Source of the DNA: Eledone cirrhosa
Lineage: Eukaryota
NCBI GenBank assembly: GCA_964016885.1
Contig: OZ024742.1
Span: forward strand, 195,052,001-195,116,000
DNA: 64,000 nucleotides
Reading direction: 5' to 3'
Below the pieces are notes generated by a model that was not told the DNA's origin, made no database searches, and saw only the letters and a program-made list of their open reading frames with translations. Made by a program: the position numbers and the translations under genes. Positions 1-61,482 of the stretch are shown one piece after another (within the stretch, counting starts at the first letter, position 1; every line of letters begins with the position of its first letter).

Positions 1-1923
1 ATTTATGCCATACGGTGTTAAGGCAACCACGTCACCTTTTTGTTCAACACTGACACAGGAACGATGTACTAGTTTCAAGCTTGTTAGCTATCATCAGCAC
101 CGTTTACCCATCTGCCAGATAGTTGAACGTTCAAAAGTATATACTTTCCTTATGAAAATTAACGGCTGAGCAGCCTAATTTGCATATTGAGTGAGTTAAA
201 TCGGTCAGGCATACCGAAAACGATAAATTGAAACAAAATGAAAACGAAATTTCATTTCTCACTCTTAGTATGGCACTTACTTAAATGTAAGTATGCATGT
301 ATACGTACATACATACATGTATACAGACGTACAGTAGCATGCACATATATATATATATATACACATATACATACATATGCATACAGGTACACATACATAT
401 ATGCACGTATCAGTTTAGCGGCGCTAACGTCGCTTTGTTCGTTTGTAAACAAACTGAACAGCCTGAATTTATGCCATACGGTGTTAAGGCAACCACGTCA
501 CCTTTTTGTTCAACACTGACACAGGAACGATGTACTAGTTTCAAGCTTGTTAGCTATCATCAGCACCGTTTACCCATCTGCCAGATAGTTGAACGTTCAA
601 AAGTATATACTTTCCTTATGAAAATTAACGGCTGAGCAGCCTAATTTGCATATTGAGTGAGTTAAATCGGTCAGGCATACCGAAAACGATAAATTGAAAC
701 AAAATGAAAACGAAATTTCATTTCTCACTCTTAGTATGGCACTTACTTAAATGTAAGTATGCATGTATACGTACATACATATATGTATACAGACGTACAG
801 TAGCATGCACATATATATATATATATACATATATACATACATATGCATACAGGTACACATACATATATGCACGTATCAGTTTAGCGGCGCTAACGTCGCT
901 TTGTTCGTTTGTAAACAAACTGAACAGCCTGAATTTATGCCATACGGTGTTAAGGCAACCACGTCACCTTTTTGTTCAACACTGACACAGGAACGATGTA
1001 CTAGTTTCAAGCTTGTTAGCTATCATCAGCACCGTTTACCCATCTGCCAGATAGTTGAACGTTCAAAAGTATATACTTTCCTTATGAAAATTAACGGCTG
1101 AGCAGCCTAATTTGCATATTGAGTGAGTTAAATCGGTCAGGCATACCGAAAACGATAAATTGAAACAAAATGAAAACGAAATTTCATTTCTCACTCTTAG
1201 TATGGCACTTACTTAAATGTAAGCATGCATGCATACGTACATACATATATGTATACAGACGTACAGTAGCATGCACATATATATATATATATACATATAT
1301 ACATACATATGCATACAGGTACACATACATATATGCACGTATCAGTTTAGCGGCGCTAACGTCGCTTTGTTCGTTTGTAAACAAACTGAACAGCCTGAAT
1401 TTATGCCATACGGTGTTAAGGCAACCACGTCACCTTTTTGTTCAACACTGACACAGGAACGATGTACTAGTTTCAAGCTTGTTAGCTATCATCAGCACCG
1501 TTTACCCATCTGCCAGATAGTTGAACGTTCAAAAGTATATACTTTCCTTATGAAAATTAACGGCTGAGCAGCCTAATTTGCATATTGAGTGAGTTAAATC
1601 GGTCAGGCATACCGAAAACGATAAATTGAAACAAAATGAAAACGAAATTTCATTTCTCACTCTTAGTATGGCACTTACTTAAATGTAAGTATGCATGTAT
1701 ACGTACATACATACATGTATACAGACGTACAGTAGCATGCACATATATATATATATATACACATATACATACATATGCATACAGGTACACATACATATAT
1801 GCACGTATCAGTTTAGCGGCGCTAACGTCGCTTTGTTCGTTTGTAAACAAACTGAACAGCCTGAATTTATGCCATACGGTGTTAAGGCAACCACGTCACC
1901 TTTTTGTTCAACACTGACACAGG

Positions 1924-1968
1924 AACGATGTACTAGTTTCAAGCTTGTTAGCTATCATCAGCACCGTT
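1924..1968 (-). ncRNA. Same hammerhead on the minus strand in the left palindrome arm (also 1458-1502, 992-1036, 526-570, 60-104)
   Basis: Exact reverse complement of 2602-2646. Confidence 0.88.
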
Positions 1969-2520
1969 TACCCATCTGCCAGATAGTTGAACGTTCAAAA
2001 GTATATACTTTCCTTATGAAAATTAACGGCTGAGCAGCCTAATTTGCATATTGAGTGAGTTAAATCGGTCAGGCATACCGAAAACGATAAATTGAAACAA
2101 AATGAAAACGAAATTTCATTTCTCACTCTTAGTATGGCACTTACTTAAATGTAAGTATGCATGTATACGTACATACATATATGTATACAGACGTACAGTA
2201 GCATGCACATATATATATATATATACATATATACATACATATGCATACAGGTACACATACATATATGCACGTATCAGTTTAGCGGCGCTAAACTGATACG
2301 TGCATATATGTATGTGTACCTGTATGCATATGTATGTATATATGTATATATATATATATATGTGCATGCTACTGTACGTCTGTATACATATATGTATGTA
2401 CGTATACATGCATACTTACATTTAAGTAAGTGCCATACTAAGAGTGAGAAATGAAATTTCGTTTTCATTTTGTTTCAATTTATCGTTTTCGGTATGCCTG
2501 ACCGATTTAACTCACTCAAT

Positions 2521-2528
2521 ATGCAAAT
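2521..2528 (+). promoter_or_regulatory. Octamer motif ATGCAAAT about 80 bp upstream of each satellite hammerhead
   Basis: Perfect octamer once per monomer. Function is inferred by analogy to snRNA-type promoters and newt satellite 2. Confidence 0.4.
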
Positions 2529-2601
2529 TAGGCTGCTCAGCCGTTAATTTTCATAAGGAAAGTATATACTTTTGAACGTTCAACTATCTGGCAGATGGGT
2601 A

Positions 2602-2646
2602 AACGGTGCTGATGATAGCTAACAAGCTTGAAACTAGTACATCGTT
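2602..2646 (+). ncRNA. Minimal type-I hammerhead ribozyme in the satellite monomer (plus-strand copies also start at 3068, 3534, 4000, 4466, 4932, 5398, 5864)
   Basis: AACGGTG-CTGATGA-T-AGCT-AACA-AGCT-T-GAAA-CTAG-TA-CATCGTT. Stem I AACGGUG/CAUCGUU, canonical core CUGAUGA...GAAA, stem II AGCU/AGCU, palindromic stem III ACUAGU, cleavage triplet GUA (cut after 2639). Confidence 0.88.
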
Positions 2647-5600
2647 CCTGTGTCAGTGTTGAACAAAAAGGTGACGTGGTTGCCTTAACACCGTATGGCA
2701 TAAATTCAGGCTGTTCAGTTTGTTTACAAACGAACAAAGCGACGTTAGCGCCGCTAAACTGATACGTGCATATATGTATGTGTACCTGTATGCATATGTA
2801 TGTATATGTGTATATATATATATATATGTGCATGCTACTGTACGTCTGTATACATGTATGTATGTACGTATACATGCATACTTACATTTAAGTAAGTGCC
2901 ATACTAAGAGTGAGAAATGAAATTTCGTTTTCATTTTGTTTCAATTTATCGTTTTCGGTATGCCTGACCGATTTAACTCACTCAATATGCAAATTAGGCT
3001 GCTCAGCCGTTAATTTTCATAAGGAAAGTATATACTTTTGAACGTTCAACTATCTGGCAGATGGGTAAACGGTGCTGATGATAGCTAACAAGCTTGAAAC
3101 TAGTACATCGTTCCTGTGTCAGTGTTGAACAAAAAGGTGACGTGGTTGCCTTAACACCGTATGGCATAAATTCAGGCTGTTCAGTTTGTTTACAAACGAA
3201 CAAAGCGACGTTAGCGCCGCTAAACTGATACGTGCATATATGTATGTGTACCTGTATGCATATGTATGTATATATGTATATATATATATATATGTGCATG
3301 CTACTGTACGTCTGTATACATATATGTATGTACGTATGCATGCATGCTTACATTTAAGTAAGTGCCATACTAAGAGTGAGAAATGAAATTTCGTTTTCAT
3401 TTTGTTTCAATTTATCGTTTTCGGTATGCCTGACCGATTTAACTCACTCAATATGCAAATTAGGCTGCTCAGCCGTTAATTTTCATAAGGAAAGTATATA
3501 CTTTTGAACGTTCAACTATCTGGCAGATGGGTAAACGGTGCTGATGATAGCTAACAAGCTTGAAACTAGTACATCGTTCCTGTGTCAGTGTTGAACAAAA
3601 AGGTGACGTGGTTGCCTTAACACCGTATGGCATAAATTCAGGCTGTTCAGTTTGTTTACAAACGAACAAAGCGACGTTAGCGCCGCTAAACTGATACGTG
3701 CATATATGTATGTGTACCTGTATGCATATGTATGTATATATGTATATATATATATATATGTGCATGCTACTGTACGTCTGTATACATATATGTATGTACG
3801 TATACATGCATACTTACATTTAAGTAAGTGCCATACTAAGAGTGAGAAATGAAATTTCGTTTTCATTTTGTTTCAATTTATCGTTTTCGGTATGCCTGAC
3901 CGATTTAACTCACTCAATATGCAAATTAGGCTGCTCAGCCGTTAATTTTCATAAGGAAAGTATATACTTTTGAACGTTCAACTATCTGGCAGATGGGTAA
4001 ACGGTGCTGATGATAGCTAACAAGCTTGAAACTAGTACATCGTTCCTGTGTCAGTGTTGAACAAAAAGGTGACGTGGTTGCCTTAACACCGTATGGCATA
4101 AATTCAGGCTGTTCAGTTTGTTTACAAACGAACAAAGCGACGTTAGCGCCGCTAAACTGATACGTGCATATATGTATGTGTACCTGTATGCATATGTATG
4201 TATATGTGTATATATATATATATATGTGCATGCTACTGTACGTCTGTATACATGTATGTATGTACGTATACATGCATACTTACATTTAAGTAAGTGCCAT
4301 ACTAAGAGTGAGAAATGAAATTTCGTTTTCATTTTGTTTCAATTTATCGTTTTCGGTATGCCTGACCGATTTAACTCACTCAATATGCAAATTAGGCTGC
4401 TCAGCCGTTAATTTTCATAAGGAAAGTATATACTTTTGAACGTTCAACTATCTGGCAGATGGGTAAACGGTGCTGATGATAGCTAACAAGCTTGAAACTA
4501 GTACATCGTTCCTGTGTCAGTGTTGAACAAAAAGGTGACGTGGTTGCCTTAACACCGTATGGCATAAATTCAGGCTGTTCAGTTTGTTTACAAACGAACA
4601 AAGCGACGTTAGCGCCGCTAAACTGATACGTGCATATATGTATGTGTACCTGTATGCATATGTATGTATATATGTATATATATATATATATGTGCATGCT
4701 ACTGTACGTCTGTATACATATATGTATGTACGTATGCATGCATGCTTACATTTAAGTAAGTGCCATACTAAGAGTGAGAAATGAAATTTCGTTTTCATTT
4801 TGTTTCAATTTATCGTTTTCGGTATGCCTGACCGATTTAACTCACTCAATATGCAAATTAGGCTGCTCAGCCGTTAATTTTCATAAGGAAAGTATATACT
4901 TTTGAACGTTCAACTATCTGGCAGATGGGTAAACGGTGCTGATGATAGCTAACAAGCTTGAAACTAGTACATCGTTCCTGTGTCAGTGTTGAACAAAAAG
5001 GTGACGTGGTTGCCTTAACACCGTATGGCATAAATTCAGGCTGTTCAGTTTGTTTACAAACGAACAAAGCGACGTTAGCGCCGCTAAACTGATACGTGCA
5101 TATATGTATGTGTACCTGTATGCATATGTATGTATATATGTATATATATATATATATGTGCATGCTACTGTACGTCTGTATACATATATGTATGTACGTA
5201 TACATGCATACTTACATTTAAGTAAGTGCCATACTAAGAGTGAGAAATGAAATTTCGTTTTCATTTTGTTTCAATTTATCGTTTTCGGTATGCCTGACCG
5301 ATTTAACTCACTCAATATGCAAATTAGGCTGCTCAGCCGTTAATTTTCATAAGGAAAGTATATACTTTTGAACGTTCAACTATCTGGCAGATGGGTAAAC
5401 GGTGCTGATGATAGCTAACAAGCTTGAAACTAGTACATCGTTCCTGTGTCAGTGTTGAACAAAAAGGTGACGTGGTTGCCTTAACACCGTATGGCATAAA
5501 TTCAGGCTGTTCAGTTTGTTTACAAACGAACAAAGCGACGTTAGCGCCGCTAAACTGATACGTGCATATATGTATGTGTACCTGTATGCATATGTATGTA

Positions 5601-6398
5601 TATGTGTATATATATATATATATGTGCATGCTACTGTACGTCTGTATACATGTATGTATGTACGTATACATGCATACTTACATTTAAGTAAGTGCCATAC
5701 TAAGAGTGAGAAATGAAATTTCGTTTTCATTTTGTTTCAATTTATCGTTTTCGGTATGCCTGACCGATTTAACTCACTCAATATGCAAATTAGGCTGCTC
5801 AGCCGTTAATTTTCATAAGGAAAGTATATACTTTTGAACGTTCAACTATCTGGCAGATGGGTAAACGGTGCTGATGATAGCTAACAAGCTTGAAACTAGT
5901 ACATCGTTCCTGTGTCAGTGTTGAACAAAAAGGTGACGTGGTTGCCTTAACACCGTATGGCATAAATTCAGGCTGTTCAGTTTGTTTACAAACGAACAAA
6001 GCGACGTTAGCGCCGCTAAACTGATACGTGCATATATGTATGTGTACCTGTATGCATATGTATGTATATATGTATATATATATATATATGTGCATGCTAC
6101 TGTACGTCTGTATACATATATGTATGTACGTATGCATGCATGCTTACATTTAAGTAAGTGCCATACTAAGAGTGAGAAATGAAATTTCGTTTTCATTTTG
6201 TTTCAATTTATATATATATATATATGTCCTTAAAACATTTTCAGCTGTTTTCATATTCCATTTCATTCAGGTACTGGACATGTATGTATGTTGTTTATGT
6301 TACGTCGCGTTTGAGCGCTACTGGTAACAGTGTAGCCCAGAACAATCTGTCAAATAATTGGATCGCTGACGACGAGACTGGTAACACAACCAAGCTTG

Positions 6399-7929
6399 GT
6401 TCATTTAACAGTTATCCTATACTACGAGCTGTCTCACCTATGTACACTATATTCTTATCTTTACATTGTCCTTCAGTACATCTTATGCTGTATACTATGT
6501 TTCTAGTTTTACAGTTAATATGGGGGCTTAGTTTACAGATTATGCATTTCTTATCTATACAGGGAGGTCTTTGAAAAGGGTATGTATTACTAATAACTGT
6601 TTTTATGGAGGTACCTGGTCTTTCTACTATCTTAATATTAAGTTTAAGTTTATCTAGGGCCCTTCTAAATGTGTAATTTAATTCACCTCTAGGGGTTGTA
6701 TTGATGAACATTACACTCTGGTATTTATTGCTTTCAAACCATGAGTTTATTCTATTAACCTTATTCCTAGTTCTTTCTATTCTATTCCAAAATGTCCTCC
6801 TATACAAGGGGCAGGTCCCATTTGTATCATTATTTACCATTTTTTACATTTGGTTCTGGCTTCTCCATATACTCTGATTTTATCTCTCTGATTGTAACCA
6901 GAGAACTGCATACGGTGGATGAAGTGTTGTATGTGTCTCTCTAGTTCTTTGGGGTTGCACATGCGGGACACGTTTCTCATCACCCGTACCAAATCCGCAA
7001 TCAGTATGTTGATTTTGGTGTGATCAGCTGAGTTTCGGTGGATCACATATTTGGAAGTCATGGGTTTGGCATAATGGGAATGGAGGATTTGGTTTTTGTT
7101 ATTATTGGTTTCTAACCAGAGCTCTGTGTCTAGTACAGGTAATTGATGGTTGGAGTGTTTGCTTGGGTAGTCTATAGTAACGCTAATACTCTGGTGGATG
7201 GAGTTAGCTATTTGCTGGATGCTTTCCATGGTGTTTTTATCTAATTCCTGACTGTTCTCTTGTGGGGGTGTTTTTACTACGATGTTTATATCATATAAAC
7301 AACGTAGCGAGAGTACATTATCAGGGTTAGGAGGTTGCTGTCTTCCAATTATTATTTAAGTTTATTGTTCCACCATACCATGAATAGGTTAGCTATGTCA
7401 CCTGCAATGCTAACACCAATTGCTGCTCCCTCCTCTTATGCAGATGTTTTTTCATAAAAATTTGAACATATATTCCTTAAGGGTTAGTTTTATACTGGTC
7501 CCCACAGCATGTGTAATCATTTTCTTTAGTTTATCGTGGTTTTCGCGGGTCCGTATGGCTCTGCGTCACCCGTTCCATCTATCTGTGTAGGTTTTCTTGG
7601 ACATTGAGGTAATGGAAGGTGGTCTGCCTCTTGCTGGTCTTGTGGGGCAGAGATTTCTAAGGTCATACGTATCTAGATAATCATTACTATAAGTAAGTTT
7701 AAGTAGGAGTCCCAGCTCACTGGTATCAATCCCACGGAATTCAACATTGCTCTCACTGATCATTTCTACGGATTTCTCCACAGCAAAATCCACGTCAATG
7801 GATGGATATAGGGACACAACATCCATACTACCTATTATACAGTCTGTTAGGTCCCTAGATCGGTTATTTTCGCTGATTCTGCTGAGGAGGTCCTCGGTGC
7901 TCTCACATATATCTAGTATAGCTAGATCT
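6399..7929 (-). mobile_element. Degenerate Penelope-like element 1: RT plus GIY-YIG endonuclease, frameshifted
   Basis: MDVVSLYPSIDV (RT motif A, 7566-7826), GAAIGVSIAGDIANLFM (motif B', about 7380-7430), LPVLDTELW...HYAKPMTS (6834-7229), CKTRNIVYSIRC...YIGETARS (GIY-YIG, 6412-6840). Confidence 0.85.
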
Positions 7930-8579
7930 AAAGACCTCCCTGTATAGATAAGAAATGCATAATCTGTAAACTAAGCCACCATATTAACTGTAAAACTAGA
8001 AACATAGTATATAGCATAAGCTGAAGGACAATGTAAAGATAAGAACATAGTGTACATAGGTGAGACAGCTCGTAGTATAGGAGAACTGTTAAATGAACAC
8101 TGGCGAGAGCTTCAAGATAGAAAAGAATCATCAATACTCCACCAACATGAACATAAGGGCAAATTAGAGAACATAGAAATAAAAATAAAATCTACACAGA
8201 GAAAAGACGCAATGTTTAGACAAATCACAGAGGCAATAAACATAAATGAACTCCAACCAAAATTAAATAGAAAACATGAATGGAACAGCAACATCACAAC
8301 TTACAATTAAGGACAAAATGAAAACACACGCACATAGAACAAACAACCAACCAGTCCAGTAACATGTAAATAAACAATTAAATAAACAAATAAAAATACA
8401 CACAGACACCCGGATGTAACACATGCGCAAACTAACCACACAACACACACAAAAACAAGATGGCGTAGGACAGAACAAAGAAAATAATCCCCAATTTTTT
8501 TTTTTTTTTATTTATAATAAATTGGAGTGAAACGCTGGTGAGTGTGTTTCTTATTGGCAACATGATCCTCCCAAAGTAT

Positions 8580-8585
<6 letters not shown>
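7930..8585 (+). mobile_element. Inverted 3' copy (pseudo-LTR) of PLE 1 with the GIY-YIG C-terminus
   Basis: 7930-8098 is the reverse complement of 6399-6572. ORF 8050-8310 reads YIGETARSIGELLNEHW...RQITEAININELQPKLNRKHEW. Followed by (TA)n. Confidence 0.8.
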
Positions 8586-8623
<38 letters not shown>

Positions 8624-8640
8624 TAGACTTGGTTCTCTGA

Positions 8641-8715
<75 letters not shown>

Positions 8716-9003
8716 ATTATGTAATAAACAACATAAGGCAATTATTCCATTTACCAGTGGTTTCTTAAAAGCAAAAGGTTTTGCTTTCAATCCTCAGAAT
8801 GAAAAATCCTGGTTTGTTTATTAAATATGGATTCTAAAAACAAAAATGCAATCTATATGAAAGTGAGGCTGGAAAAGGGAGAAGGAAAGGAAAAATAAAT
8901 TAAAACTACACATGCAAACACACACAAAAAAACACAAAAGCATACTTACACCCACATACATATATACACATATATATAAATGCACGCATACACATATACA
9001 TAT

Positions 9004-9034
<31 letters not shown>

Positions 9035-9126
9035 AAGAGCGTACACCTACACACACATACACATATATACACACATATACACATACATATATTCATACAT
9101 ACACACACACACACACACATATATAT

Positions 9127-9161
<35 letters not shown>

Positions 9162-9644
9162 TATATATACACATGTACATATCCATACATATATATATAT
9201 ACATACATATATACATATACACACATATACATACACACACACACACACACACACATGTGTGTGTACAAGCATACACATACACACACACATATATATATAC
9301 ACACACATATACATACATTCACACAAACATACAACGTACATACATACACATACATGAATGCACTCCACTACATATTAACACACGCAAATAAATATAAGAA
9401 CAAATATATAAATATATATTAACAAATTTTTGACAGCGATACATGCCCCAGCTAACAGGACAGACACGCGTGGTAAGTAATACACACATAAGTACATAAA
9501 CTTACGTTCGAAATAGTAAACACATACACACACTCTCACACATAAATATACATATACAAATACATAAACACGTACATACACATACATACACAAACACGTA
9601 CACGTATACAATATAAACACACACATGTATATGTAATTATATAT

Positions 9645-9713
<69 letters not shown>

Positions 9714-10297
9714 CAAAAATATAAAAATATAAACGCACACACACATATAAATACGTAAACACACATATACATACATAGCTAAACAATTATACACATGCAA
9801 ATACGTATATATCAAAAGAACGCACAACCAAATACAAGCACACACATATACACACACACACACCCACACACAAACCCACACATACATAAAAATAAATAAA
9901 TACACACGCACACATATACATACATACACATACATATACATATATACATATACATATACATATACATATATACACATATATATATAAATATATATATATA
10001 TACACACATACACGTACACATACACACATGCATACACATACACACACACATATACATGTGTGTATGTGTAAAGCTCAGTATTAGATAAGACAAATGAACC
10101 TTACATAAACGTATATATAGTAGTAAAGTAATAAAGCCATACAAGGCAATTAATCCATTCACCAGAGGTTTCTTAAAAGCAAAAAAAGTTTCCTTCAATC
10201 TTCAGAATGAAAAAAAGGCCTGGTTTATCCACATATACATACATATACACACACAAATATACAAATATATAAGCACATACAGACACGCACACACACA

Positions 10298-10331
<34 letters not shown>

Positions 10332-10625
10332 CAGACATATATACATACATATATATACACATACATATATATACATACATACATACATATATATATATAC
10401 ATACACAAACATATACGTACACATATACATATATACACACAAAAATACATACACATACACATAGGTATGTGAAGGGCAAAACAAAAAGAATATATAGGGG
10501 GGGGCTAAGAGGAGGTAACAATATAAGGGGAGGTAAGGGAGAAAACAATTTTAAATATACAAGAGTACAGAAGGTAGAAGCAGCAAAATAAAAACCGTAG
10601 CAAAAGTAAAGAGCAGAGAAGGAGT

Positions 10626-11447
10626 TCAAGGCGGTTGATTTATCGTAGGAGTGTCAATCCAGTTACAGATCAGATGCGATTTCAGATGAGGACAGCATCT
10701 GAAGATCTCAGTCTTAGAGTTAAGGCAAGCGGAAGTGTCTCTCAAGTTTAGCAAAATCCTATACTTTTCTGTGGTACACAAAGAACAATTCTTTGTGCCC
10801 CTTTGGTACTCCCTCGAATGGTCTAATATAGACCAATCAATAGAGTACGGGATATTACTATCCTTGAGATCCCATACCTTACTTGCGAGGGCCGTTGATG
10901 TTCGTTTATCTGAGTGTTTAAAAGAAGCGACATGTGAGTAAAATCTGGTTTTAAACCTGTCCTGGGTTATACCGACATATCGCTCGCTTCTGGCTGGCTG
11001 GTTGTTGATAACTGGCGTTATTTTAGCCTCATAAACGACAGATTTTGTGTTACATTTACCCTGCAATGGGCATTCATCCGGCTTCCTGCAACTGCATCCT
11101 GGATTTATCCTCGTACGGTTTGAACTGGTGATTTTGGACTTCATGGATGGGCAACAAGAGTAGCTGATCTTAACTACATTCCTATTAAAAATCTTATAAT
11201 ATCTATGAATAGGAGGAAAATGTTTGTCTAATAGTTCAAGGAATTTCCTTCCTACATTAGTTTTGACATTTAGAGAGAAGGGGGGTGTGAACCAAATAAT
11301 CTTCCTTTTCCTGTTATTATGGTTAGTTTTAGGGGGGGGGGGGGGAGTAGGTAAATAAGAAATATTTTCTGTAAAACCGCTGTTCTTAAGGGCTTTATTA
11401 TAATAAGGGGCGGCTTTATTAAAAATGTCTATAGACGAAGATAAGGT
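10626..11447 (-). pseudogene. PLE 2 C-terminal ORF fragment (RT thumb end, linker, GIY-YIG endonuclease)
   Basis: FNKAAPYYNKALKNSGF...RKRKIIWFTPPFSLNVKTNVG...CSCRKPDECPLQGKC...VVYEAKI...YVGITQDRFKTRFYSH...CSLCTTEK...LNSKTEIFRCCPH; 5'-truncated. Confidence 0.85.
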
Positions 11448-11448
11448 A

Positions 11449-12021
11449 TATAAGATTTTTAATAGGAATGTAGTTAAGATCAGCTACTCTTGTTGCCCAT
11501 CCATGAAGTCCAAAATCACCAGTTCAAACCGTACGATGATAAATCCAGGATGCAGTTGCAGGAAGCCGGATGAATGCCCATTGCAGGGTAAATGTAACAC
11601 AAAATCTGTCGTTTATGAGGCTAAAATAACGCCAGTTATCAACAACCAGCCAGCCAGAAGCGAGCGATATGTCGGTATGACCCAGGACAGGTTTAAAACC
11701 AGATTTTACTCACATGTCGCTTCTTTTAAACACTCAGATAAACGAACATCAACGGCCCTCGCAAGTAAGGTATGGGATCTCAAGGATAGTAATATCCCGT
11801 ACTCTATTGATTGGTCTATATTAGACCATTCGAGGGAGTACCAAAGGGGCACAAAGAATTGTTCTTTGTGTACCACAGAAAAGTATAGGATTTTGCTAAA
11901 CTTGAGAGACACTTCCGCTTGCCTTAACTCTAAGACTGAGATCTTCAGATGCTGTCCTCATCTGAAATCGCATCTGATCTGTAACTGGATTGACACTCCT
12001 ACGATAAATCAACCGCCTTGA
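11449..12021 (+). pseudogene. Inverted second copy of the PLE 2 GIY-YIG endonuclease region
   Basis: ORF 11425-12021 is nearly identical to 10626-11144 (two amino-acid changes in the shared part). Confidence 0.85.
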
Positions 12022-12318
12022 ACTCCTTCTCTGCTCTTTACTTTTGCTACGGTTTTTATTTTGCTGCTTCTACCTTCTGTACTCTTGTATATTTAAAATG
12101 TTTTTCTCCCTTACCTCCCCTTATATTTTTACCTCCTCTTAGCCCCCCCCCCCCATATATTCTTTTTGTTTTGCCCTTCACATACCTATGTGTATGTGTA
12201 TGTATTTTTGTGCGTATATATGTATATGTGTACGTATATGTTTGTGTATGTATATATATATATGTATGTATGTATGTATATATATGTATGTGTATATATA
12301 TGTATGTATATATGTCTG

Positions 12319-12354
<36 letters not shown>

Positions 12355-12442
12355 TATGTGTGTGTGCGTGTCTGTATGTGCGTATATATTTGTATATTTG
12401 TGTGTGTATATGTATGTATATGTGGATAAACCAGGCCTTTTT

Positions 12443-12500
12443 TTCATTCTGAAGATTGAAGGAAACTTTTTTTGCTTTTAAGAAACCTCTGGTGAATGGA
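12443..12500 (+). ncRNA. Second, degenerate hammerhead of PLE 2 (mirror 10154-10211, minus)
   Basis: CTGAAGA...GAAA-CCTCTGG-TG-AATGG; paralogue of 13843-13901 with a GUG site and a damaged stem II. Confidence 0.6.
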
Positions 12501-12942
12501 TTAATTGCCTTGTATGGCTTTATTACTTTACTACTATATATACGTTTATGTAAGGTTCATTTGTCTTATCTAATACTGAGCTTTACACATACACACATGT
12601 ATATGTGTGTGTGTATGTGTATGCATGTGTGTATGTGTACGTGTATGTGTGTATATATATATATATTTATATATATATGTGTATATATGTATATGTATAT
12701 GTATATATGTATATATGTATATGTATGTGTATGTATGTATATGTGTGCGTGTGTATTTATTTATTTTTATGTATGTGTGGGTTTGTGTGTGGGTGTGTGT
12801 GTGTGTATATGTGTGTGCTTGTATTTGGTTGTGCGTTCTTTTGATATATACGTATTTGCATGTGTATAATTGTTTAGCTATGTATGTATATGTGTGTTTA
12901 CGTATTTATATGTGTGTGTGCGTTTATATTTTTATATTTTTG

Positions 12943-13019
<77 letters not shown>

Positions 13020-13488
13020 ATATAATTACATATACATGTGTGTGTTTATATTGTATACGTGTACGTGTTTGTGTATGTATGTGTATGTACGTGTTTATGT
13101 ATTTGTATATGTATATTTATGTGTGAGAGTGTGTGTATGTGTTTACTATTTCGAACGTATGTATATGTGCTTATGTGTGTATTACTTACCACGCGTGTCT
13201 GTCCTGTTAGCTGGGGCATGTATCGCTGTCAAAAATTTGTTAATATATATTTATATATTTGTTCTTATATTTATTTGCGTGTGTTAATATGTAGTGGAGT
13301 GCATTCATGTATGTGTATGTATGTACGTTGTATGTTTGTGTGAATGTATGTATGTGTGTGTATATATATGTGTGTGTGTATGTGTATGCTTGTACACACA
13401 CATGTGTGTGTGTGTGTATGTATATGTGTGTATATGTATATATGTATGTATATATATATATGTATGGATATGTACATGTGTATATATA

Positions 13489-13552
<64 letters not shown>

Positions 13553-13610
13553 AATATATGTATGTGTATATGTGTGTATATATGTGTATGTGTGTGTAGG
13601 TGTACGCTCT

Positions 13611-13642
<32 letters not shown>

Positions 13643-13842
13643 ATATGTATATGTGTATGCGTGCATTTATATATATGTGTATATATGTATGTGGGTGTAA
13701 GTATGCTTTTGTGTTTTTTTGTGTGTGTTTGCATGTGTAGTTTTAATTTATTTTTCCTTTCCTTCTCCCTTTTCCAGCCTCACTTTCATATAGATTGCAT
13801 TTTTGTTTTTAGAATCCATATTTAATAAACAAACCAGGATTT

Positions 13843-13901
13843 TTCATTCTGAGGATTGAAAGCAAAACCTTTTGCTTTTAAGAAACCACTGGTAAATGGA
13901 A
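13843..13901 (+). ncRNA. Hammerhead ribozyme in the PLE 2 pseudo-LTR (mirror copy 8745-8803, minus)
   Basis: TTCATT-CTGAGGA-TTGAAAGCAAAA-CC-TTTTGCTTTTAA-GAAA-CCACTGG-TA-AATGGAA. Stems I, II and III all pair; GUA cleavage site. Confidence 0.8.
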
Positions 13902-14014
13902 TAATTGCCTTATGTTGTTTATTACATAATAATAATAATTAAGCTCTGTTGCATACATAGAGCACTCTTTTTCCCTGGACTTTTCCGATGGAATTACTTC
14001 ATTCACACATATAT

Positions 14015-14111
<97 letters not shown>

Positions 14112-14490: not shown

Positions 14491-14733
14491 CAACATCCAT
14501 ACTACCTATTATACAGTCTGTTAGGTCCCTAGATCGGTTATTTTTGCTGATTTTGCTGAGGAGGTCCTCCGTGACTGAATCTTAACCATCTATTATGTCA
14601 GTGTATGTCTTGTATCATCTTATTTATCTGATGAGGACGTACTGTTGAAGTTAACTCAGTACCTCTGAAATATGTTTAATAAAATATACTTCATCACAAG
14701 AATATCTATTTTGTTAATATTTTGAATTAATAT

Positions 14734-14735
<2 letters not shown>
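14491..14735. mobile_element. Short PLE insertion: 82-bp antisense RT piece of the PLE 1 family joined to a hammerhead-like motif (about 14621-14688, plus)
   Basis: 14491-14572 matches 7818-7899. Then CTGATGA-GGAC-GTACTG...CAGTAC-CTCT-GAAA-TATGTT. (TA)n tracts on both sides. Confidence 0.6.
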
Positions 14736-14782
<47 letters not shown>

Positions 14783-23845: not shown

Positions 23846-24170
23846 AATAGAGGTGTGACACACAAGTTGTGATATGTTAGTAAAAAGGAAAAGAAAATGC
23901 TGACTAAGTTTTCCCAGTGAAAAATAGTTTAATTAGGAATAAGTATGAATTAGTAATAAGTATTGGTTAGTATTCAGTTTTAATTTTAAGCTTTTACCGG
24001 TTGCGCATTTCTAATGGTTTTCAAAAATTATTTTGAGATAGAGCACTCGTGATGTTTGCTCTAATCTGGATTAGAGCAAACATCACGAGCGCTCTATCTC
24101 AAAATTACTTATTCCTAATTAAACTATTTTTCACTGGGAAAAATTTGTCAGCATTTCCGTTTCCTTTTTA

Positions 24171-24213: not shown

Positions 24214-24216
<3 letters not shown>

Positions 24217-25290
24217 ATTAATAAATGGAAACTATATTTATAAAACCATATTTATTTCATTATATATATTTCAAGGATACCAAGTTAAATCATGGTATGC
24301 CTTCATAAGACAAAATACAATATATAACAGTTTTACAAATAGATATTGACGTACCCTTTCAAAAAGGTGACCGTTGTTTTTGGAGGCCATCCGGATAGTG
24401 GTTTGTTTACTTTAGTAAGTCATAGTGTTAAGAGTAAGTAAAAAGATGAAGAGAGAGAGGGAGAAACGTGGAGAAAAGAAAGGGAAAGATAGATAAAGAA
24501 AAAGAAGAAAGCAAAAAGAAAAGAGAACAGAGGAAAAATAACGGGGAGATATCAAAACATCAGACAGAGACAGAACTCAAGAGAGAGATATGCAGAGATA
24601 GAGAGAGGGGGGAGAGAACGAAAACCTTAAGTTATGTTATATTAAGTTGAGTTAACAATTGAGATGAAATGAATAAATAAAATTAGAAATATTAATATTC
24701 GTGAATGGAATATAGATATATAATATGAGAAATTACACATTGTTTAATTATGATTATATATTTAGTTTAAAAATTGAGATCAATATATTAAAAATTGGAA
24801 TTTAAACATTATAAAATATATATATATTGCTAGAAAGATTATCTATCGTATATCACATATACATAGGCAAAGGTACATAAATATATACATATACTCACTC
24901 ACTCAGAAAATACACACTATATCTACTCCCGCACATAATGTATACATACAAAGCATAAGTGATTTTTTATTTATTGCTATACACTCCTTGTGTTATTAAT
25001 TAAAAAACTTTAGTATATATATATAAATATATAGGATTAACTTTTCTGCATTTACGGCTCACCTTTTTGAAAGGGTACGTCAATATCTATTTGTAAAACT
25101 GTTATATATTGTATTTTGTCTGATGAAGGCATACCATGATTTAACTTGGTATCCTTGAAATATATATAATGAAATAAATATGGTTTTATAAATATAGTTT
25201 CCATTTATTAATATTTTGTCGAGTGCTTTATATCAGTTATAATAATATTTGCTTGTTGTATCCCAACAATTTAAATAGAACTTTTGCATA
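24214..25290. mobile_element. Non-coding PLE-type element with inverted hammerhead-containing repeats (24214-24370 / 25059-25215)
   Basis: The arms are reverse complements; (TA)n flanks. Confidence 0.8.
25112..25176 (+). ncRNA. Minimal hammerhead ribozyme (left mirror 24253-24317 has a mutated core, CUUAUGA)
   Basis: TATTTTGT-CTGATGA-AGGCATACCA-loop-TGGTATCCTT-GAAA-TATATA-TA-ATGAAATA. Stem I is 8 bp with G.U wobbles; stem III is a self-complementary AU run. Confidence 0.75.
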
Positions 25291-25453: not shown

Positions 25454-25617
25454 GATAAGTCGAAAAAAAGTATCAGTCCAGTATTGGGTTTGATTCTTCC
25501 TCTATAGAATAAATGAACTGTGTTCAGACATGGAGATAGTTGGGCTCCGCCAGGTTTAAAAGTGTCCTAGACACGCCATTTGACGGTGCCTTTACCCTTT
25601 TATTATTATATATATAA

Positions 25618-25805
25618 TGGCAGTGGATTGGCAGTATCGGTAGAGAGTCGGATGCCATGCTTTCCAGCATAGTTACGTCCCTTTACGATCTGAGTTCAAA
25701 TCCCGCCGAGGTTGACTTTGCCTTTCATCCTTACGGGGTCGATAAAATAAAGTACCAGTAATGCACTGGGTAATTGCTGGCCTTGTGCCTAAAGTAGAAA
25801 CAATT
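25618..25805 (+). mobile_element. SINE family A
   Basis: Box A/B head, core, GGCCTTGTGCCTAAAGTAGAAACAATTAT tail. Confidence 0.9.
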
Positions 25806-26704
25806 ATATATATATAGTTGTGTGGTTGTGGGTGGGTGTTGATGTTTGTTTGATCTGTAAGCTAGAAGTTCGGTAATAAGAGAACATTTAATTAAGTACG
25901 AGACTTGAAAAATAATTAGTTCTTATATCAATATGTTCGACTAAATCCATCATAGCGATGCTCCAGTATGTCCGCAGTCTGTTTACTCAAACAAGTAGAA
26001 GTCTATTTCGACTATTTTCAAACTTAAAACCACTAAAAAGTATTATAAATACATATTAACCCTAACGACGTGTTTATTGCAATTATTGCTGTTGCTGTTG
26101 CTGTTGCTGTTGCTTTCGTTGTTGTTGCTTCTTTTTATGTTGTTAAAGATTAAAGCATATTCTGATTATACTAATCTGCTAATGGAAGCTTTTCCCGCGG
26201 GAGAAGTTTTTCCTGGCAATGTTTTAAGACTTCAACACGGTATTAGTAGTGATACTTACATGTTAAGGACTTGCTTTAATTAGAATTGTTGCCAAAAATG
26301 TATTGTTTGTTCTGTACATTACACATTTTCTGTGTGTATGCATTTCAAAATAGGTAAACAATATCCTTACAAGTCATAAGATGTGGTTAATATTGTTGGT
26401 ATCAAGAAGGGTATTTGGTTGTAAAACATTTCTTCAAAGAGGGTTACAGGATGAGCGTAAAGCCTATCGTGAGATGTGGAAGGCTAACTCCTGTTTTAGG
26501 AGTGAAATGACAATAAAATGTTTTCTGATTTAGACACAACGCCAACAATTTTTGAGGGACGAGAAAATCAATGAAATCAAATTCAGTGCATGACTGGTAC
26601 TTTATGTTATCGACCTCGCAAGAAAGAACGAAGATAAACACTGAAGACATGGTTCGTTGATAGATTGATATGGGCAAGTTAAAAGAATAACACAGGGTAA
26701 ATTT

Positions 26705-28038: not shown

Positions 28039-28452
28039 TACGATATTAAATAAATGGAAACTATATTTATAAAACCATATGTATTTCATTATATATATTT
28101 CAGGGATATCATATTAAAAATATGGTATGCCTTCTTCAGGCAAAATACAATATAAACAGTCTTATAAATAGATAGATTTGACATACCTTACAACTTCAAC
28201 TTCCATTTAAAAAGTTGATTTGGTAGTCAAATCTATCTATTTATAAGACTGTTTATATTGTATTTTGTCTGAAGAAGGCATACCATATTTTTAATATGAT
28301 ATCCCTGAAATATATATAATGAAATAAATATGGTTTTATAAATATAGTTTCCATTTATTTAATATCGTAAATATACTCCAAATACTTGTTGAGTGCTTTT
28401 ATATCAGTTATAAATATTTACTCGTTGTAACCCAACAATTTAAATAAAACTT

Positions 28453-28455
<3 letters not shown>
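28039..28455. mobile_element. Second member of the 24214-25290 family: 144-bp inverted arms (28039-28182 / 28226-28369), each with a hammerhead
   Basis: HHR at 28261-28326 (plus): TATTTTGT-CTGAAGA-AGGCATACCATAT...ATATGATATCCCT-GAAA-TATATATA-ATGAAATA; mirror 28082-28147 (minus). Confidence 0.8.
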
Positions 28456-28495
<40 letters not shown>

Positions 28496-28497
28496 CG

Positions 28498-28754
28498 TCC
28501 AGAAATAGCCGTCGAAACGGCTTGAGCTCTGCCGTCGGGGTCTTGAACATTTTCCTATATATATATATATATAACGAAGGAGTTGTGGTAAGGAGCCAGA
28601 TGGACCATAACGCACCAGAGTACTCAATACTTAGAGTAGTAGAGTGGGTAATAAGAAAATGTTTAACCTCGACGGCAGAGCTCAAGCCGTTTCGACAGCT
28701 ATTTCTGGACTCCAGAAATAGCCGTCGAAACGACTTGAGCTCTGCCGTCGGGGT

Positions 28755-28756
<2 letters not shown>
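28498..28756. repeat. 44-bp unit present three times; two copies form a 93-bp palindrome centred at 28710
   Basis: TCCAGAAATAGCCGTCGAAACG(G/A)CTTGAGCTCTGCCGTCGGGGT at 28498 (+), 28666-28709 (-) and 28711 (+). Confidence 0.85.
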
Positions 28757-35008: not shown

Positions 35009-35289
35009 ACTTGTTCTTCTTTTTGGTAAATATCATCTTGGTTAAGAGAGTGGGACTGGCTTTGTGCAGTGCCCATGCTCACTATAAAAGCTTCACGGCA
35101 CAGGCATTGCTTTATATCTGGAGATCTCTCTGCACTTGTCGTCACATGGTACCATGGGCCCAAGACTATGTGTCAATAATTGTCACAAGTGTAGTGTTTG
35201 TACCAGAGTTTACAAGTCGCATCGGTAGGGGTTCTCCTACATGGATATAAAGTAGTGGCCGTACTCGAAAACGAGTTGGCAGCCACCAT
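35009..35289 (+). mobile_element. Truncated copy of the bipartite RTE-derived element
   Basis: Reverse complement of part of 39438-39750 with a short internal deletion; TATG-type tail. Confidence 0.85.
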
Positions 35290-36240
35290 GTATATATCTA
35301 TGTATGTACGTATGTATATATGTATGTACGTATGTGTGTATGTATGTACGTATGTATGCATGTATGTATATATATAACTATATATGTACGTGCGTGTGTG
35401 TGTAAGGATTAATTATGTAACCAAGTCAAAACGTTCTCCGTGGTCTTATTTTCCTGATGGCTAACTCTAACATTTTTCTATGGTTTCACACCTAATACAA
35501 CATTACATTACTTGTTCAATAACGTTTGTTCATGATGTCGTTCTTATTTTATTTATTACACATTTATACTTCTACTTTTTTAAATCAACTGAATAAAAAC
35601 ACTGTTGCTTTGGGGAACTTCTTTACAAATATTTCAAGAAACCATCATGATTGACGAAAATGATGTTCAAAATGGTTGCCAGAAGTTGAAAAATCTTCTG
35701 CTGTTGGAAAGGAGTATTTTAGCAATGTGTTTGTGTTTGTTTAGTTGGATGTTTGTAGTAGTTTGTTTCTTTTGATTGCTTTTTTTTGTATACCTCAACT
35801 TACTTCTGCTCGAATGATTAAACATCTTCACTTGCTTACCGTTTCTATGATTTCGTTTTCATAAAGGAAAAAGGCTGGATAAAGAATAAAAAATATCACA
35901 TAAGCTGTCAATGCTATATTAACAGCGAAAATAGAATCCTTTCTTATCTTTCAGAGTGGTTAGCTAAAACTATTCTTTTCTTTTATGATGTGAAATTTAA
36001 ACGGAATGAAAGCTATAGAAAGAACCGATGCGCAATGTGTTAAGAAGGATGAGTACAGAATGGGTAACATTCAGACTTAAGCTGAAATGAGGCTTGAAGG
36101 AAAAAGGAAAAGAGTTGCCTAAAGAAACTGTTTCTTTAGCAGTTCGATTAATAAATACTATGATTTAAAAAGAAAATAATTCAATTAAATAGTAATCAAT
36201 CAATAAATAAATAAACACAAACGCACAGACTATATAGATA

Positions 36241-36318
<78 letters not shown>

Positions 36319-36336
36319 CGTATGTGTATATGTATA

Positions 36337-36372
<36 letters not shown>

Positions 36373-36472
36373 TATATATTTTTGTATATACATATTAATA
36401 AATATATTTGTATATATATTTATAAATAAATATATTTATATTTATATATATAGGTATTAATTGTACAACATA

Positions 36473-36577
<105 letters not shown>

Positions 36578-36922
36578 GAATATATATATATATATATATA
36601 TACATAGAGAGAGAGAGAAAGAGAGAGAGAGAGATAATGTAAGTGTGCATATATATATGTGTATATGTATGCCTCTATGTATATATGTTGGTTGTGTGGG
36701 TATGTATATCTATATAATCATACACACAGACATATTTTATCGATCACTATTTCATAGATTCGCAAACTTTTACGGTTTTATAACAGTAAACAGAAACAGA
36801 AACATCTATATACAAACATATATACATACAAACATACATCATACATACATAAATGCATACATACATCATACATACATGCATACATACAAACATACATACA
36901 AACATACATACATACATACATA

Positions 36923-37335
36923 CATGGTGGCTGCCAACTCGTTTTCGAGTACGGCCACTACTTTATATCCATGTAGGAGAACCCCTACCGATGCGCTGAA
37001 CGAGTGTGACTTTTTAGTCCAGCCAGCGACTTGAAAACTCTGGTACAAACACTACACTTGTGACAATTACTGAAACATAGTGCTGGGCCCATGGTACCAT
37101 GTGACGACAAGTGCAGAGAGATCTCCAGATATAAAGCAATGCCTGTGCCGTGAAGCTTTTATAGTGAGCAAAGGCATTGCACAAAGCCAGTCCCACTCTC
37201 TTTACCAAGATGATATTTACCAAAAAGAAGAACAAGTCAACATGATTGGATACCATCAGGGTTGCAGGTGTTATATCAGAGTTTTCCTTCTCCTAGAATT
37301 CTGCCTTGACAAAGGCTAAGGGGTCATCTCTCCCA
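36923..37335 (-). mobile_element. Bipartite RTE-derived element, 5'-truncated, within (CATA)n
   Basis: Nearly identical to 39438-39842. Confidence 0.88.
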
Positions 37336-37394
37336 TACATACATACATACATACATACATACATACATACATACATACATACATACATACATAC

Positions 37395-37765
37395 AGAGAT
37401 CAGCTGCCCACTTGATGGAAACGTTGTCAGAAAAATACAGGAGAAGGAGGACATCTACGGGCCATTGATGAGGAGTTTACAAATCCAGTATCCAAGATAC
37501 ACCTTTAGCTTCATACCAATCATTATTGGAGCTACGGGCTATATACCAACCCGCTTGGACCAATGTATAACTGAACTTGGATTTGCGGACAAAGAGCGCA
37601 GCTCCCTAATTCATAGTATACAAATTGTTGCGATAGCTGGCACCTTCAAAATTTGCGAAAGATTCTTGCGATTCAAGGGATGACAATTTCTTTTCTTTTA
37701 CAACCTTGCCACCAGGAAGGTGGCCGGTCAAAAAAATATACTCGAAATTAAGAGAAAGAGATAAC
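37395..37765 (+). mobile_element. R4/Dong-like non-LTR element 3' end (restriction-like endonuclease C-terminus)
   Basis: [24 protein letters not shown]...IPIIIGATG; flanked by (CATA)n on both sides. Confidence 0.75.
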
Positions 37766-37837
37766 ATGCATACATACATACATACATACATACATACATA
37801 CATACATACATACATACATACATACATACATACATAC

Positions 37838-39240
37838 CAGAACCTGATGTATAAAATATATACAGCCTCCCAGAACCTATTCCAAGGTCACTGCAACAGT
37901 AATAACATAATTACAGATGATCAAGTAGCTGGAAGGATGGGTGTTTTGGAGTGTACTGAACAACTCCTAATTAACAAAACTGCGATGTCGGAGGTGCGAC
38001 AACTTGGTTACAGTCTGGATGGACTACTGGAAGCATTTATTCTGTTCCCCACTCTTTGATGATAGAGGCCCTCCGACTTGCTAAAGTCCCATACACTATT
38101 ATCAGAGTCATGGAGAATCTGTCTTCTTCTTGGGCTACTATCCTAAAGTTAAAAACAGAGAAGGAGGACTCTATTTTCAGTAATAAAATAGAATATCACA
38201 TGGGTATATTCAAGGAGACAGTCTCTCTGTTCTACTATGTATCCTGCCATTAAACTCCTTGTCCTTTCTGTTCAAGAAATGTAAAGAATACTCCATTGGT
38301 TCACAGGAGGACAGAAACACAAACCCATAATTTTTTTGTGGATAACCTGAAACGTAAATGGAATGAAGAAATATTTTGTCCTGGTTACAACTTTCTCAAA
38401 GGATATAGGAATGGAAATTAGCCAAGATAAATGTTCATATATGATTGTAAAGCGGGGAAAAACTACAACCCAATCTAGCAATATTTTTATCAATAGCCTA
38501 ACTGTTTCACTGACATCTGACGAGACTGCCACAGATACCTGGGGATAGATGAGAAGACATCCTATAATAGTATTTGTAATAAGGACGCGTAAATAGGGAA
38601 TATTACATCTGATTATGAAAAATATGATCATCGGGGCTCTCTGCGCACAATAAAACAGTAGCTCACAATGTGTTTGCTGTGCCAACGTTTGGAATACTGG
38701 ACTGGACGATAGACGAAATCCGAGCAATTGATATTAAAACCCGAAAAATCCTAAACAACACCGGAAACTTCCACATCAACAATGACATAAACCGCCTCTA
38801 CTTGATACGTAAGCTTGGAGGTGGAGGCCTAACATCAGTCCAGACAGCATTTGAGTATCGCATCAAATCCCTCCAACAACATTTACGAACCTCCTAGCGT
38901 AGGAGCCCATCTATTGAGCAAGTCTATCTGCATGAGACAGATAAGATGATGAGAGTTGGAAAGTAACCCCTTGAAAGATACTCCCTGCATGAAAATCAAA
39001 ACTCACACCCAGGGAAATTGCCCAGCAATACCGCAGTGAATCCATTGATGAAAAAGTGTATGCTTATCAGCAAAAAATGGATATGTTGCCAGGTATCTCC
39101 AGAGTGAGAGTAATATAGATAAGAAAAGTAGTCTATCTTGGACCAACAACCGCTATATTGACTATAGATATGTTGCCAGGTATCTCCAGTGTGAGAGTAA
39201 TATAGATAGGCAATGTAGTCTACCTTGGACCAACAACCAC
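37838..39240 (+). mobile_element. R4/Dong-like RT remnant, frameshifted
   Basis: QNLMYKIYT...CTEQLLINK...IEALRLAKVP...GIF...GILDWTIDEIRAIDIKTRKIL...RLYLIRKLGGGGL; starts right after (CATA)n; about 87-bp internal tandem duplication at 39080-39240. Confidence 0.75.
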
Positions 39241-39437
39241 ATCCACACATACAATAACATCCATATCTACACATGCATGCATACATACATATCTACCTAG
39301 TTGATGTTGTGTAAATTCCAATGAGAGAGTCTTGTGTCTATGTTAGAAACCGACTCTCTCTCTATTGGTAAAACTTTGTGAAATTATAAAACCAGAAGAA
39401 CATACATATATACATACGTACATACATACATTCATAC

Positions 39438-41042: not shown

Positions 41043-41265
41043 ATACATACATACATACATACATACATACACATTTTTGCTTTGATATATGAGTTTGCTC
41101 GTGGTGGACGTTAGTTTTCTATGATGAACACACCAGAGGTATGCTGATGGAGGATTCACTGGGCGCTGGTAAATACGTAATCATTAGGAATGTGGGCTGT
41201 TCTGGCTAAACATAACTAGTCGGTCTCACTAGTGGGTAGGTTTTTAGCTCTGAAATTTTGGCAGT

Positions 41266-44575: not shown

Positions 44576-44771
44576 ATGGAGCATACACACTTACATACAG
44601 GCATACATACTCCTACGTAAAATATAGATACGTTACCTGTAAGATAGCGAGGTCGCGCTAATATATCTGTGTATGTGTGGGTTTGTGTATGGGTGCATGT
44701 ATGATTAACGTTTTGAGATTATGTTACATATTACACACACACACACACACACACAGAGAGACACATGCTCC

Positions 44772-44833
<62 letters not shown>

Positions 44834-44863
44834 TATACATACATACATACATATATATATATT

Positions 44864-44927
<64 letters not shown>

Positions 44928-44949
44928 CATACATACATATATATATATT

Positions 44950-45051
<102 letters not shown>

Positions 45052-59137: not shown

Positions 59138-59350
59138 GAATGCCATGGTTGACGGAGGCTCGGCTCTGTAAGGTATAGTAATTTTTAACCGTTAAAACAA
59201 TTGTAAATTGTTTAAAACTTGAACCAAATTGTTGATAAAGACACCCTCCTCCTCGTGAGAGGGGTCTTTCTGTCCGTTATTTGGCCCTTCGGGGTTAAAT
59301 AACCAGTTATTGGGGTTTTGTACCCAAAATTTCATTTTAAACAAAAAAAC

Positions 59351-61447: not shown

Positions 61448-61482
61448 GTGGTCTTTCCCATCTTTTCCACTCTATTTTAAAC

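Follow-up and report, generated by a model that had tools for sequence, protein, structure and literature searches.

The window analysed here is the whole 64,000-nt stretch of Eledone cirrhosa DNA. It opens inside a coding-free array with one outward-facing hammerhead per monomer, whose two arms stand head to head through a 13-bp motif; one end abuts an (AT)n tract, and insertions of Penelope-like elements (PLEs) with like geometry lie alongside. The left arm (1..2284, minus strand) holds 4.9 candidate retrozyme monomers of 466 bp, with variants A, B, C, A, B in outward order, and is cut by the window edge. The right arm (2286..6211, plus strand) holds 8.4 monomers in a strict 1398-bp trimer, (A,B,C)n. 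Common to both arms is a native quasi-palindrome of 13 bp (2279..2291), in which G2285 is, on the plus strand, the letter of the left arm and hence of the antisense strand. An (AT)8 tract (6210..6225) abuts the right end of the array and has one AT in common with it.

Type I hammerheads came to 17 in a descriptor scan of the window, and 13 belong to the array, one per monomer; among dinucleotide-shuffled monomers, 0/2000 gave any hammerhead descriptor match. The hammerhead of the first right-arm monomer lies at 2602..2646 on the plus strand (core from 2609, predicted cut after 2639) and recurs every 466 bp, and the same scan placed its mirror in the first left-arm monomer at 1924..1968 on the minus strand. 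A sequence-only reading of this DNA had claimed that the hammerheads face outward, and we find five on the minus strand in the left arm and eight on the plus strand in the right arm, as claimed. The predicted ribozyme has a stem I of 7 bp, a stem II of 4 bp with U.U at its base and a stem III of 1 bp with a palindromic loop, and a minimal stem III with such a loop has been described as the form that needs dimers (PMC4209133). The U.U stands where the canonical stem II pair G10.1-C11.1, called highly conserved in PMC4209133, is missing, a loss that may lower the predicted activity of the ribozyme. A two-copy cofold yielded no recognisable dimeric hammerhead and was left unused. Rfam at gathering score returned 0 matches across the 64 kb, with Hammerhead_HH9 appearing only below threshold (18.5 bits, E 0.14). 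A relaxed Rfam scan of 2286-3300 (E up to 10) returned 104 matches; most were to miRNA models and fell on the AT-rich tract, and we rejected them as composition effects. Both hammerhead rows in that scan were below threshold.

The 466-bp monomer has a GC content of 0.34-0.37 and folds far better than its shuffles (z −6.84, 0/100). The array has no credible ORF, its sole stop-to-stop frame of at least 110 aa being a microsatellite-like read of 114 aa. At least two consecutive units carry a complete type I hammerhead in a non-coding monomer of a few hundred bp with GC below 45%, and retrozyme monomers are given a range of 51-972 bp (bioRxiv 10.64898/2026.07.22.740005). By these sequence features the repeat has the apparent anatomy of a non-LTR retrozyme, a class for which PLEs are the proposed mobilisers (PMC7761336; bioRxiv 10.64898/2026.07.22.740005). 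When the monomer was aligned with the PLE ends in the window (five regions, both strands), 10/10 alignments fell inside the shuffled range, and its matches in the rest of the window were low-complexity only. Between the (AT)n tract of the array and the next element, the unassigned stretch 6227-6400 carries a hammerhead-like 5' half on the plus strand, broken off at ~6398, with no significant match elsewhere in the window. An apparent likeness of the monomer to this stretch was rejected as no better than that of shuffles (230/300 as high). Prokaryotic genomes gave 0 matches to a 30-nt piece of the hammerhead region, and plasmids gave none to 2420-2760, so neither search showed a sign of a vector or prokaryotic origin.

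The sequence-only reading had described a mirror of 1-2284 and 2286-4569 around the single G at 2285, and this description is exact: the two halves show 0 mismatches in 2284 positions about a centre of 1 nt. The left extent of the mirror is set by the window edge, and the right arm runs on to 6211 (3926 bp in total). Both arms are 466-bp tandem repeats with only four variable columns, arranged in the strict 3 x 466 trimer; no length change occurs among the 13 monomers, and at period 1398 there are 0 mismatches in either arm. Of the three trimer phases, one gives an exact mirror and the other two give 14 and 12 mismatches. Because the array is near-homogeneous and strictly trimeric, two blocks joined at the motif look perfect one time in three, and the perfection of the mirror mostly reflects the homogeneity of the array. 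The variant order is thus mirrored as the earlier reading had it, but as a 1-in-3 match of trimer phase it is weak evidence. The phase match is still useful, since a 3'-terminal motif that paired one or two monomers upstream would leave the same junction letters with a shifted phase.

Identical arms are also what a library or assembly artefact would leave. A broken molecule of a one-directional array could have turned back at the motif while its ends were repaired or while it was amplified, or the source could be a nanopore fold-back read, and the assembler could have joined it via the homogeneous array. The arms agree at 2284/2284 positions and the mirror reaches the first base of the window, as at a contig start; a genuine arm of 4 kb would span the start of a window in only ~6% of cases (an estimate, 4/64). 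The earlier reading's own caveat about a fold-back chimera stands. According to PMC12870357, fold-back reads make up ~0.55-0.6% in nanopore gDNA, often have nothing between their halves and can recur at one site, while PacBio HiFi data contain virtually none. Polarity does not discriminate, since an array that ends at 6211 would be given the head-to-head form by an artefact too, and with the same motif in every monomer several reads could have one junction in common. The same chimera can start in any monomer, and support from several reads would therefore be insufficient by itself to set an artefact aside. Spacerless kilobase palindromes are, moreover, described as fragile in yeast (PMC8053094), and the local neighbours with kilobase arms have long spacers. 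Against this, identical arms are expected anyway of a homogeneous young array, the genome itself makes such inversions, including some with 1- and 2-nt spacers and diverged arms, and the simplest chimera is at odds with the central G: with the flank-anchored strand first and the short copy after it, the plus strand would carry C. That leaves hairpin-capped or amplified molecules. Adapter remnants at the junction were considered and rejected, there being no room for them among junction letters that are all native sequence. Like the fold-back reads of PMC12870357, the array has identical arms on opposite strands with little or no spacer (here 0/2284 mismatches and a 1-nt centre); unlike them, it is seen in assembly letters alone, whereas the artefacts are defined on reads, as few and symmetric about the read midpoint. 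We regard an artefact as unlikely, yet give it appreciable weight because the left arm runs off the window. If it were one, the locus would serve as a warning: where a homogeneous array contains a quasi-palindrome, fold-back junctions can recur and so get past a filter based on read counts.

The turn lies, as had been claimed, inside a native quasi-palindrome of every monomer. The motif TTAGCGGCGCTAA occurs at 415, 881, 1347, 1813 and 2279 (plus-strand letters of the left arm and junction, G-centred), and its reverse complement TTAGCGCCGCTAA occurs in eight copies at 2745-6007 (right arm, C-centred on the plus strand), which places the motif in 13/13 monomers at a spacing of exactly 466. Among 1398 possible trimer centres, only three have a native arm of at least 6 bp around a 1-nt spacer, and all three are this motif; with spacers of 0-2 allowed, 54/4194 centres have such an arm. 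A random turn would land in a palindrome of this kind by chance in about 0.2-1.3% of cases, and given how few centres qualify (3/1398; 54/4194) the turn site is non-random. HindIII sites occur once per monomer, and the predicted junction fragment is 683 bp vs 466.

As a hairpin the motif is weak, at −1.7 kcal/mol and rank 10/37 on the antisense strand, and 59/466 possible 3' ends are able to form some stem of at least 4 bp; we therefore rejected an unusually stable mini-hairpin as the cause of the turn. As a self-annealing duplex on the antisense strand it ranks 1/37, at −15.8 kcal/mol. It comes first of 34-38 sites in each variant and 1/22 by the independent SantaLucia tables, and on the sense strand it is only the third self-annealing site. 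The centre of the motif is 112 nt past the hammerhead cut, and at that distance run-off at the 5' end of a cleaved RNA was rejected as well.

The right end of the array lies in a (TA)n-type target, and the left end is beyond the window. Outside the array, about 0.55% of positions lie no more than 2 nt from the point where a tract of this kind begins (63 tracts). This right end is 310 nt past the last hammerhead cut, as against 40-137 nt past the cut at 6/6 neighbour ends, so that the fixed short distance after the hammerhead that marks PLE ends is absent here. These figures bear on a second account of a real structure, in which two antisense, PLE-primed cDNAs from both sides of an (AT)n break annealed via the 13-bp motif (12/13 pairs, with a G.G mismatch) and no hairpin was involved. 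The motif is indeed the strongest self-annealing site on the antisense strand, purified PLE protein is reported to cleave and extend both target strands (PMC11167929), and the unequal fixed ends of the neighbours suggest two priming events. However, independent templates would match in trimer phase only one time in three, and annealing needs both ends to be priming sites, which sits poorly with the 310 nt at the right end. We consider this account improbable.

The neighbours themselves were drawn from 18 inverted pairs in the window. Seven are inverted inserts beside (TA)n and were used here; the pairs left out comprise five of a dispersed 190-bp repeat, two rows of elements already counted, one of the 590-bp family, one filled with (TA)n and two that were short. 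The seven inserts have spacers of 1, 2, 15, about 36, about 250, 679 and 1357 nt. Arm substitutions number 3/46, 1/37, 2/144, 15/2463, 1/161 and 4/169 in six of them and 0/51 in the seventh. Since a fold-back made in the library duplicates a single molecule, and the array itself has 0 mismatches at period 1398, the six inserts with diverged arms are genomic and not library artefacts. PLE-like ORFs or outward hammerheads are present in 4/7 inserts, and the remaining three, judged from their (TA)n ends only, would also be PLE products.

Closest to the array is a broken PLE (6399..8584) with RT/thumb pieces and a Neptune/Nematis-type CX4CxxC linker on the minus strand and an inverted GIY-YIG copy on the plus strand; its arms, 6399-6572 and 7930-8098, differ by 4 substitutions and 1 indel in 169 columns. 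A head-to-head Hydra-type PLE follows (8584..14108), with a CxCX5C linker, GIY-YIG, a ~250-nt spacer, hammerheads facing outward at 8797 (minus) and 13849 (plus) and (TA)n at both ends, and its arms differ by 15 substitutions and 11 gaps in 2463 columns. Its linker, the CxxC and the CxH found around the late E and N (read in translation), the hammerhead and the (TA)n target are marks of the Hydra clade, whose elements target (TA)n (PMC8557442), and by these motifs 8584-14108 appears to match that clade as PMC8557442 describes it. Two hammerhead-like repeats are present in each arm of this element, and on the sense strand of its 3' purine-pyrimidine tracts G far outnumbers C (340 vs 85 and 339 vs 84). 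Pfam gave no match on 8584-14108 and, on the PLE fragments, only a sub-cut-off GIY-YIG (E 0.015) for 8020-8307, other weak matches being ignored; the identity of the fragments rests on motifs, 208 homologues and atlas look-alikes, in which HTH_animal or GIY-YIG is found on a minority of members. A further PLE RT fragment at 14490-14573 matches 7816-7899, and beside it the stretch 14615-14740, which ends in (TA)n, has a hammerhead-like core at 14628 that the strict descriptor missed.

Further along, a hammerhead-bearing head-to-head insert (24214..25290, 679-nt spacer) and a member of the same hammerhead family (28041..28456, ~36-nt spacer, 2 substitutions) both have (TA)n at both ends. In each, the short end is 48-49 nt and the long one 119-137 nt past the cut, and their PLE 'tail' is longer than the 30-40 bp usually described. 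All three hammerhead-bearing neighbours (3/3) carry an extra tail of 70-90 nt on one arm, and the spacer of the Hydra-type neighbour does not belong to its longer arm. Two smaller inserts served as inverted controls. One, within a (TA)n-bounded insert, has 37-bp arms, a 2-nt spacer and 1 substitution (24030..24105); the other has 46-bp arms about a single C (28710) with 3 substitutions, ends in (TA)n and turns without a native palindrome (28664..28756). The latter belongs to three short-unit copies at 28494-28756 that begin at nearly the same base, two of which stand head to head around the single C with arms that differ at 3/46 positions. Neighbours with kilobase arms have long spacers, and the two with spacers of at most 2 nt have arms of 37-46 bp.

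Elsewhere in the window, short inverted arms at 44701-45137 enclose a long (TA)n tract, the opposite arrangement to that of the other inserts. A 590-bp tandem of ~2.8 copies (39400-41071) has a direct relative at 36841-37334 and an inverted relative at 35009-35373, and the whole region 35009-41071 is bounded by (CATA)n and flanks decayed retroelement-like frames. This tandem was considered as a second retrozyme and rejected, as it has no hammerhead core. A dispersed, SINE-like repeat of ~190 bp occurs on both strands in more than 15 places within 15769-59118 (e.g. 25600-25810), and ARAGORN found no tRNA genes in the window. An apparently intact LINE at 59303-63999 has a 714-aa frame with a zinc knuckle and an open-ended frame of 895 aa in which endonuclease and RT domains occur; for its ORF at 61483-63999, the best named relative, by one match, is from Argonauta hians (58% identity).

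Head-to-head arms with their 3' ends outward and a native palindrome at the junction are both traits of PLE-type inverted insertions, and the retrozyme array sits among PLE insertions of the same geometry. The structure is thus a known PLE hallmark and not a free-standing oddity. We consider it probable, with moderate confidence, that the array is a young non-autonomous hammerhead retrozyme insertion made by PLE machinery, in which the antisense strand folded back at the motif and primed itself as a hairpin. A multimeric retrozyme RNA, either a long read-through or a circular trimer, would have been the template of a PLE reverse transcriptase that took its primer from an (AT)n target to the left of the window. 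The resulting antisense strand, the plus strand of the left arm, would have stopped within the motif and folded back there, so that it served as primer for its own complement, the right arm, which would then have been joined to (AT)n at 6211 via the AT overlap. Because the folding strand is antisense to the ribozyme and the motif is G-centred on the plus strand, the left arm would be the template and the right arm the copy. As template, the left arm would measure at least 3926 bp and reach at least 1642 bp upstream of the window. The right end can lie 310 nt past the cut because the end of a copy need not be a priming site; it fits a copy end and not a normal PLE end. The hairpin also guarantees the exact trimer phase, which pairing to a motif one or two monomers away would break.

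Some evidence speaks against this self-primed PLE insertion. The left end is beyond the window, so the predicted priming junction is unseen, and the monomer has no detected homology to any PLE end in the window by which a partner element might be named. Pure fold-back leaves unexplained both the 70-90 nt tails of the neighbours and the mismatch between longer arm and spacer in the Hydra-type element. The neighbour at 28710 has a 1-nt spacer without a native palindrome, indicating that the neighbours are not all simple fold-backs, and the hairpin is weak (−1.7 kcal/mol, 10/37). The earlier proposal of fold-back or a template switch at a mini-hairpin is accordingly upheld in its anatomy (a non-random turn, exact trimer phase and head-to-head polarity), for which self-priming of PLEs offers a precedent (PMC3846280), but the mini-hairpin is not a strong one. 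The PLE agent and the precedent had been overlooked in that reading. Its expectation of kilobase-scale dsRNA from read-through is a correct consequence if the array is transcribed.

Fold-back at the motif could instead have happened at the DNA level in an existing array, via a break, possibly made by a PLE endonuclease in its own sequence, or via a replication template switch, as in breakage-fusion-bridge or microhomology-mediated inversions. Broken ends capped through short inverted homology are known to produce palindromes (PMC3834830), partial palindromes nucleate recurrent inversions in msh1 plastids (10.1101/2022.02.28.481893), and satellite arrays of Tribolium contain kilobase-scale dyads confirmed on raw reads (PMC13081366). 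The 112 nt from cut to motif centre is, in addition, close to the long ends of the neighbours (114-137 nt), where the PLE enzyme might act. Yet such an event needs a second one to resolve the inverted chromosome, the inversion sites in Tribolium are degenerate subunits and not spacerless (PMC13081366), and in this neighbourhood inversions are found only in PLE-like inserts flanked by (TA)n tracts, an indication that they arise at insertion. We think there is little chance that a DNA-level event made the palindrome.

The four variable columns of the array, at phases 57, 105, 121 and 129, all fall within an alternating purine-pyrimidine tract (2299..2420, phase 14-135, plus strand) that is predicted to form a long RNA hairpin. 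On the ribozyme strand 4/4 are A/G with G in the minority each time, the G being found at e.g. 2808, 2856, 3338 and 3346 and recurring every 1398 bp. Of the four variant As, the fold predicted for the all-A variant pairs three and leaves one unpaired. A/G makes up 6/22 of the substitutions between neighbour arms, beside 11 indels, and at that ratio four of four would be A/G in ~0.5% of cases, a post hoc figure on four sites only. A 5' U precedes all four variant As, but also 30/37 As of the tract. Cephalopods edit RNA heavily, and it is possible that the four variants are the imprint of A-to-I editing of a trimeric RNA before reverse transcription; ordinary drift in purine-pyrimidine tracts is a live alternative. 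For mussel, editing has been put forward as one way in which retrozyme RNA may become heterogeneous (PMC7229834), and our literature search found no paper on editing written back into a genome via the retrozyme/PLE route. Taken furthest, the locus would preserve one retrotransposition event: a trimeric retrozyme RNA whose long AU-rich hairpins had undergone A-to-I editing at four sites would have served a PLE reverse transcriptase as template for repeated rounds of copying, followed by self-priming at the 13-nt motif. This fuller scenario strikes us as quite unlikely. If true, one event would explain at once the strict trimer, the lack of length change, the A/G-only variants and the palindrome, and would give sequence-level evidence that PLEs mobilise multimeric retrozymes and that RNA editing was written into an animal genome.

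The case for PLE mobilisation of non-LTR retrozymes has so far rested on shared ribozymes, co-occurrence and relatedness of pLTRs, and the origin of PLE inverted structures is stated to be unresolved (PMC8557442). In a retrozyme array with the PLE head-to-head signature, the central base would tell which strand folded and the trimer would keep a record of phase. Such a countable read-out across genome copies would separate hairpin self-priming from the annealing of two cDNAs. Our search of openly available article texts found no report of a head-to-head retrozyme array; in the available text of PMC7229834 the word 'inverted' has 0 occurrences, and in that of bioRxiv 10.64898/2026.07.22.740005 it appears only in one reference title.

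Among known systems, the metazoan non-LTR retrozymes (PMC7229834; PMC7761336; bioRxiv 10.64898/2026.07.22.740005) resemble the array in their tandem non-coding units with one type I hammerhead each and GC below 45%, and further in a short stem III with a palindromic loop, a strongly folded monomer and co-occurrence with PLEs. The arrays described are treated as direct tandems, however, whereas the one here is inverted at its centre, is a strict trimer and has a stem II without G10.1-C11.1. The macro-dyads of Tribolium satellites (PMC13081366) likewise arise where a satellite switches strand at a conserved site, giving a multi-kilobase palindrome-like structure, but those occur at thousands of sites, with degenerate inversion subunits, inside (peri)centromeric arrays of megabase size, and in the available text of that source no link to ribozymes or retroelements is reported.

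The PLEs offer a further likeness. At the 5' end of their insertions a 5'-truncated copy in inverted orientation is often present, and the way it arises is called undefined (PMC8557442); purified PLE protein cuts AT-rich DNA and starts inside the RNA without the need for hammerhead cleavage (PMC11167929). In Adineta vaga, an inverted pLTR has 15 bp in common with the direct one where the two overlap, the pLTRs start with palindromes of 18 and 38 bp, and the recurrence of palindromes at head-to-head PLE junctions has been interpreted as self-priming on an antisense template (PMC3846280). Like the array, the Penelope elements of A. vaga (PMC3846280; PLE scheme in PMC8557442) are head to head, share a native palindrome at the junction (13 bp here, a 15-bp overlap and 18-/38-bp palindromes there), end at an AT-rich simple target and have self-priming as their proposed origin. 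They differ in that the inverted part is one ~200-bp pLTR beside an ORF, whereas the arms of the array are kilobases of coding-free tandem monomers, and in that the visible end of the array lies off the local fixed hammerhead distance.
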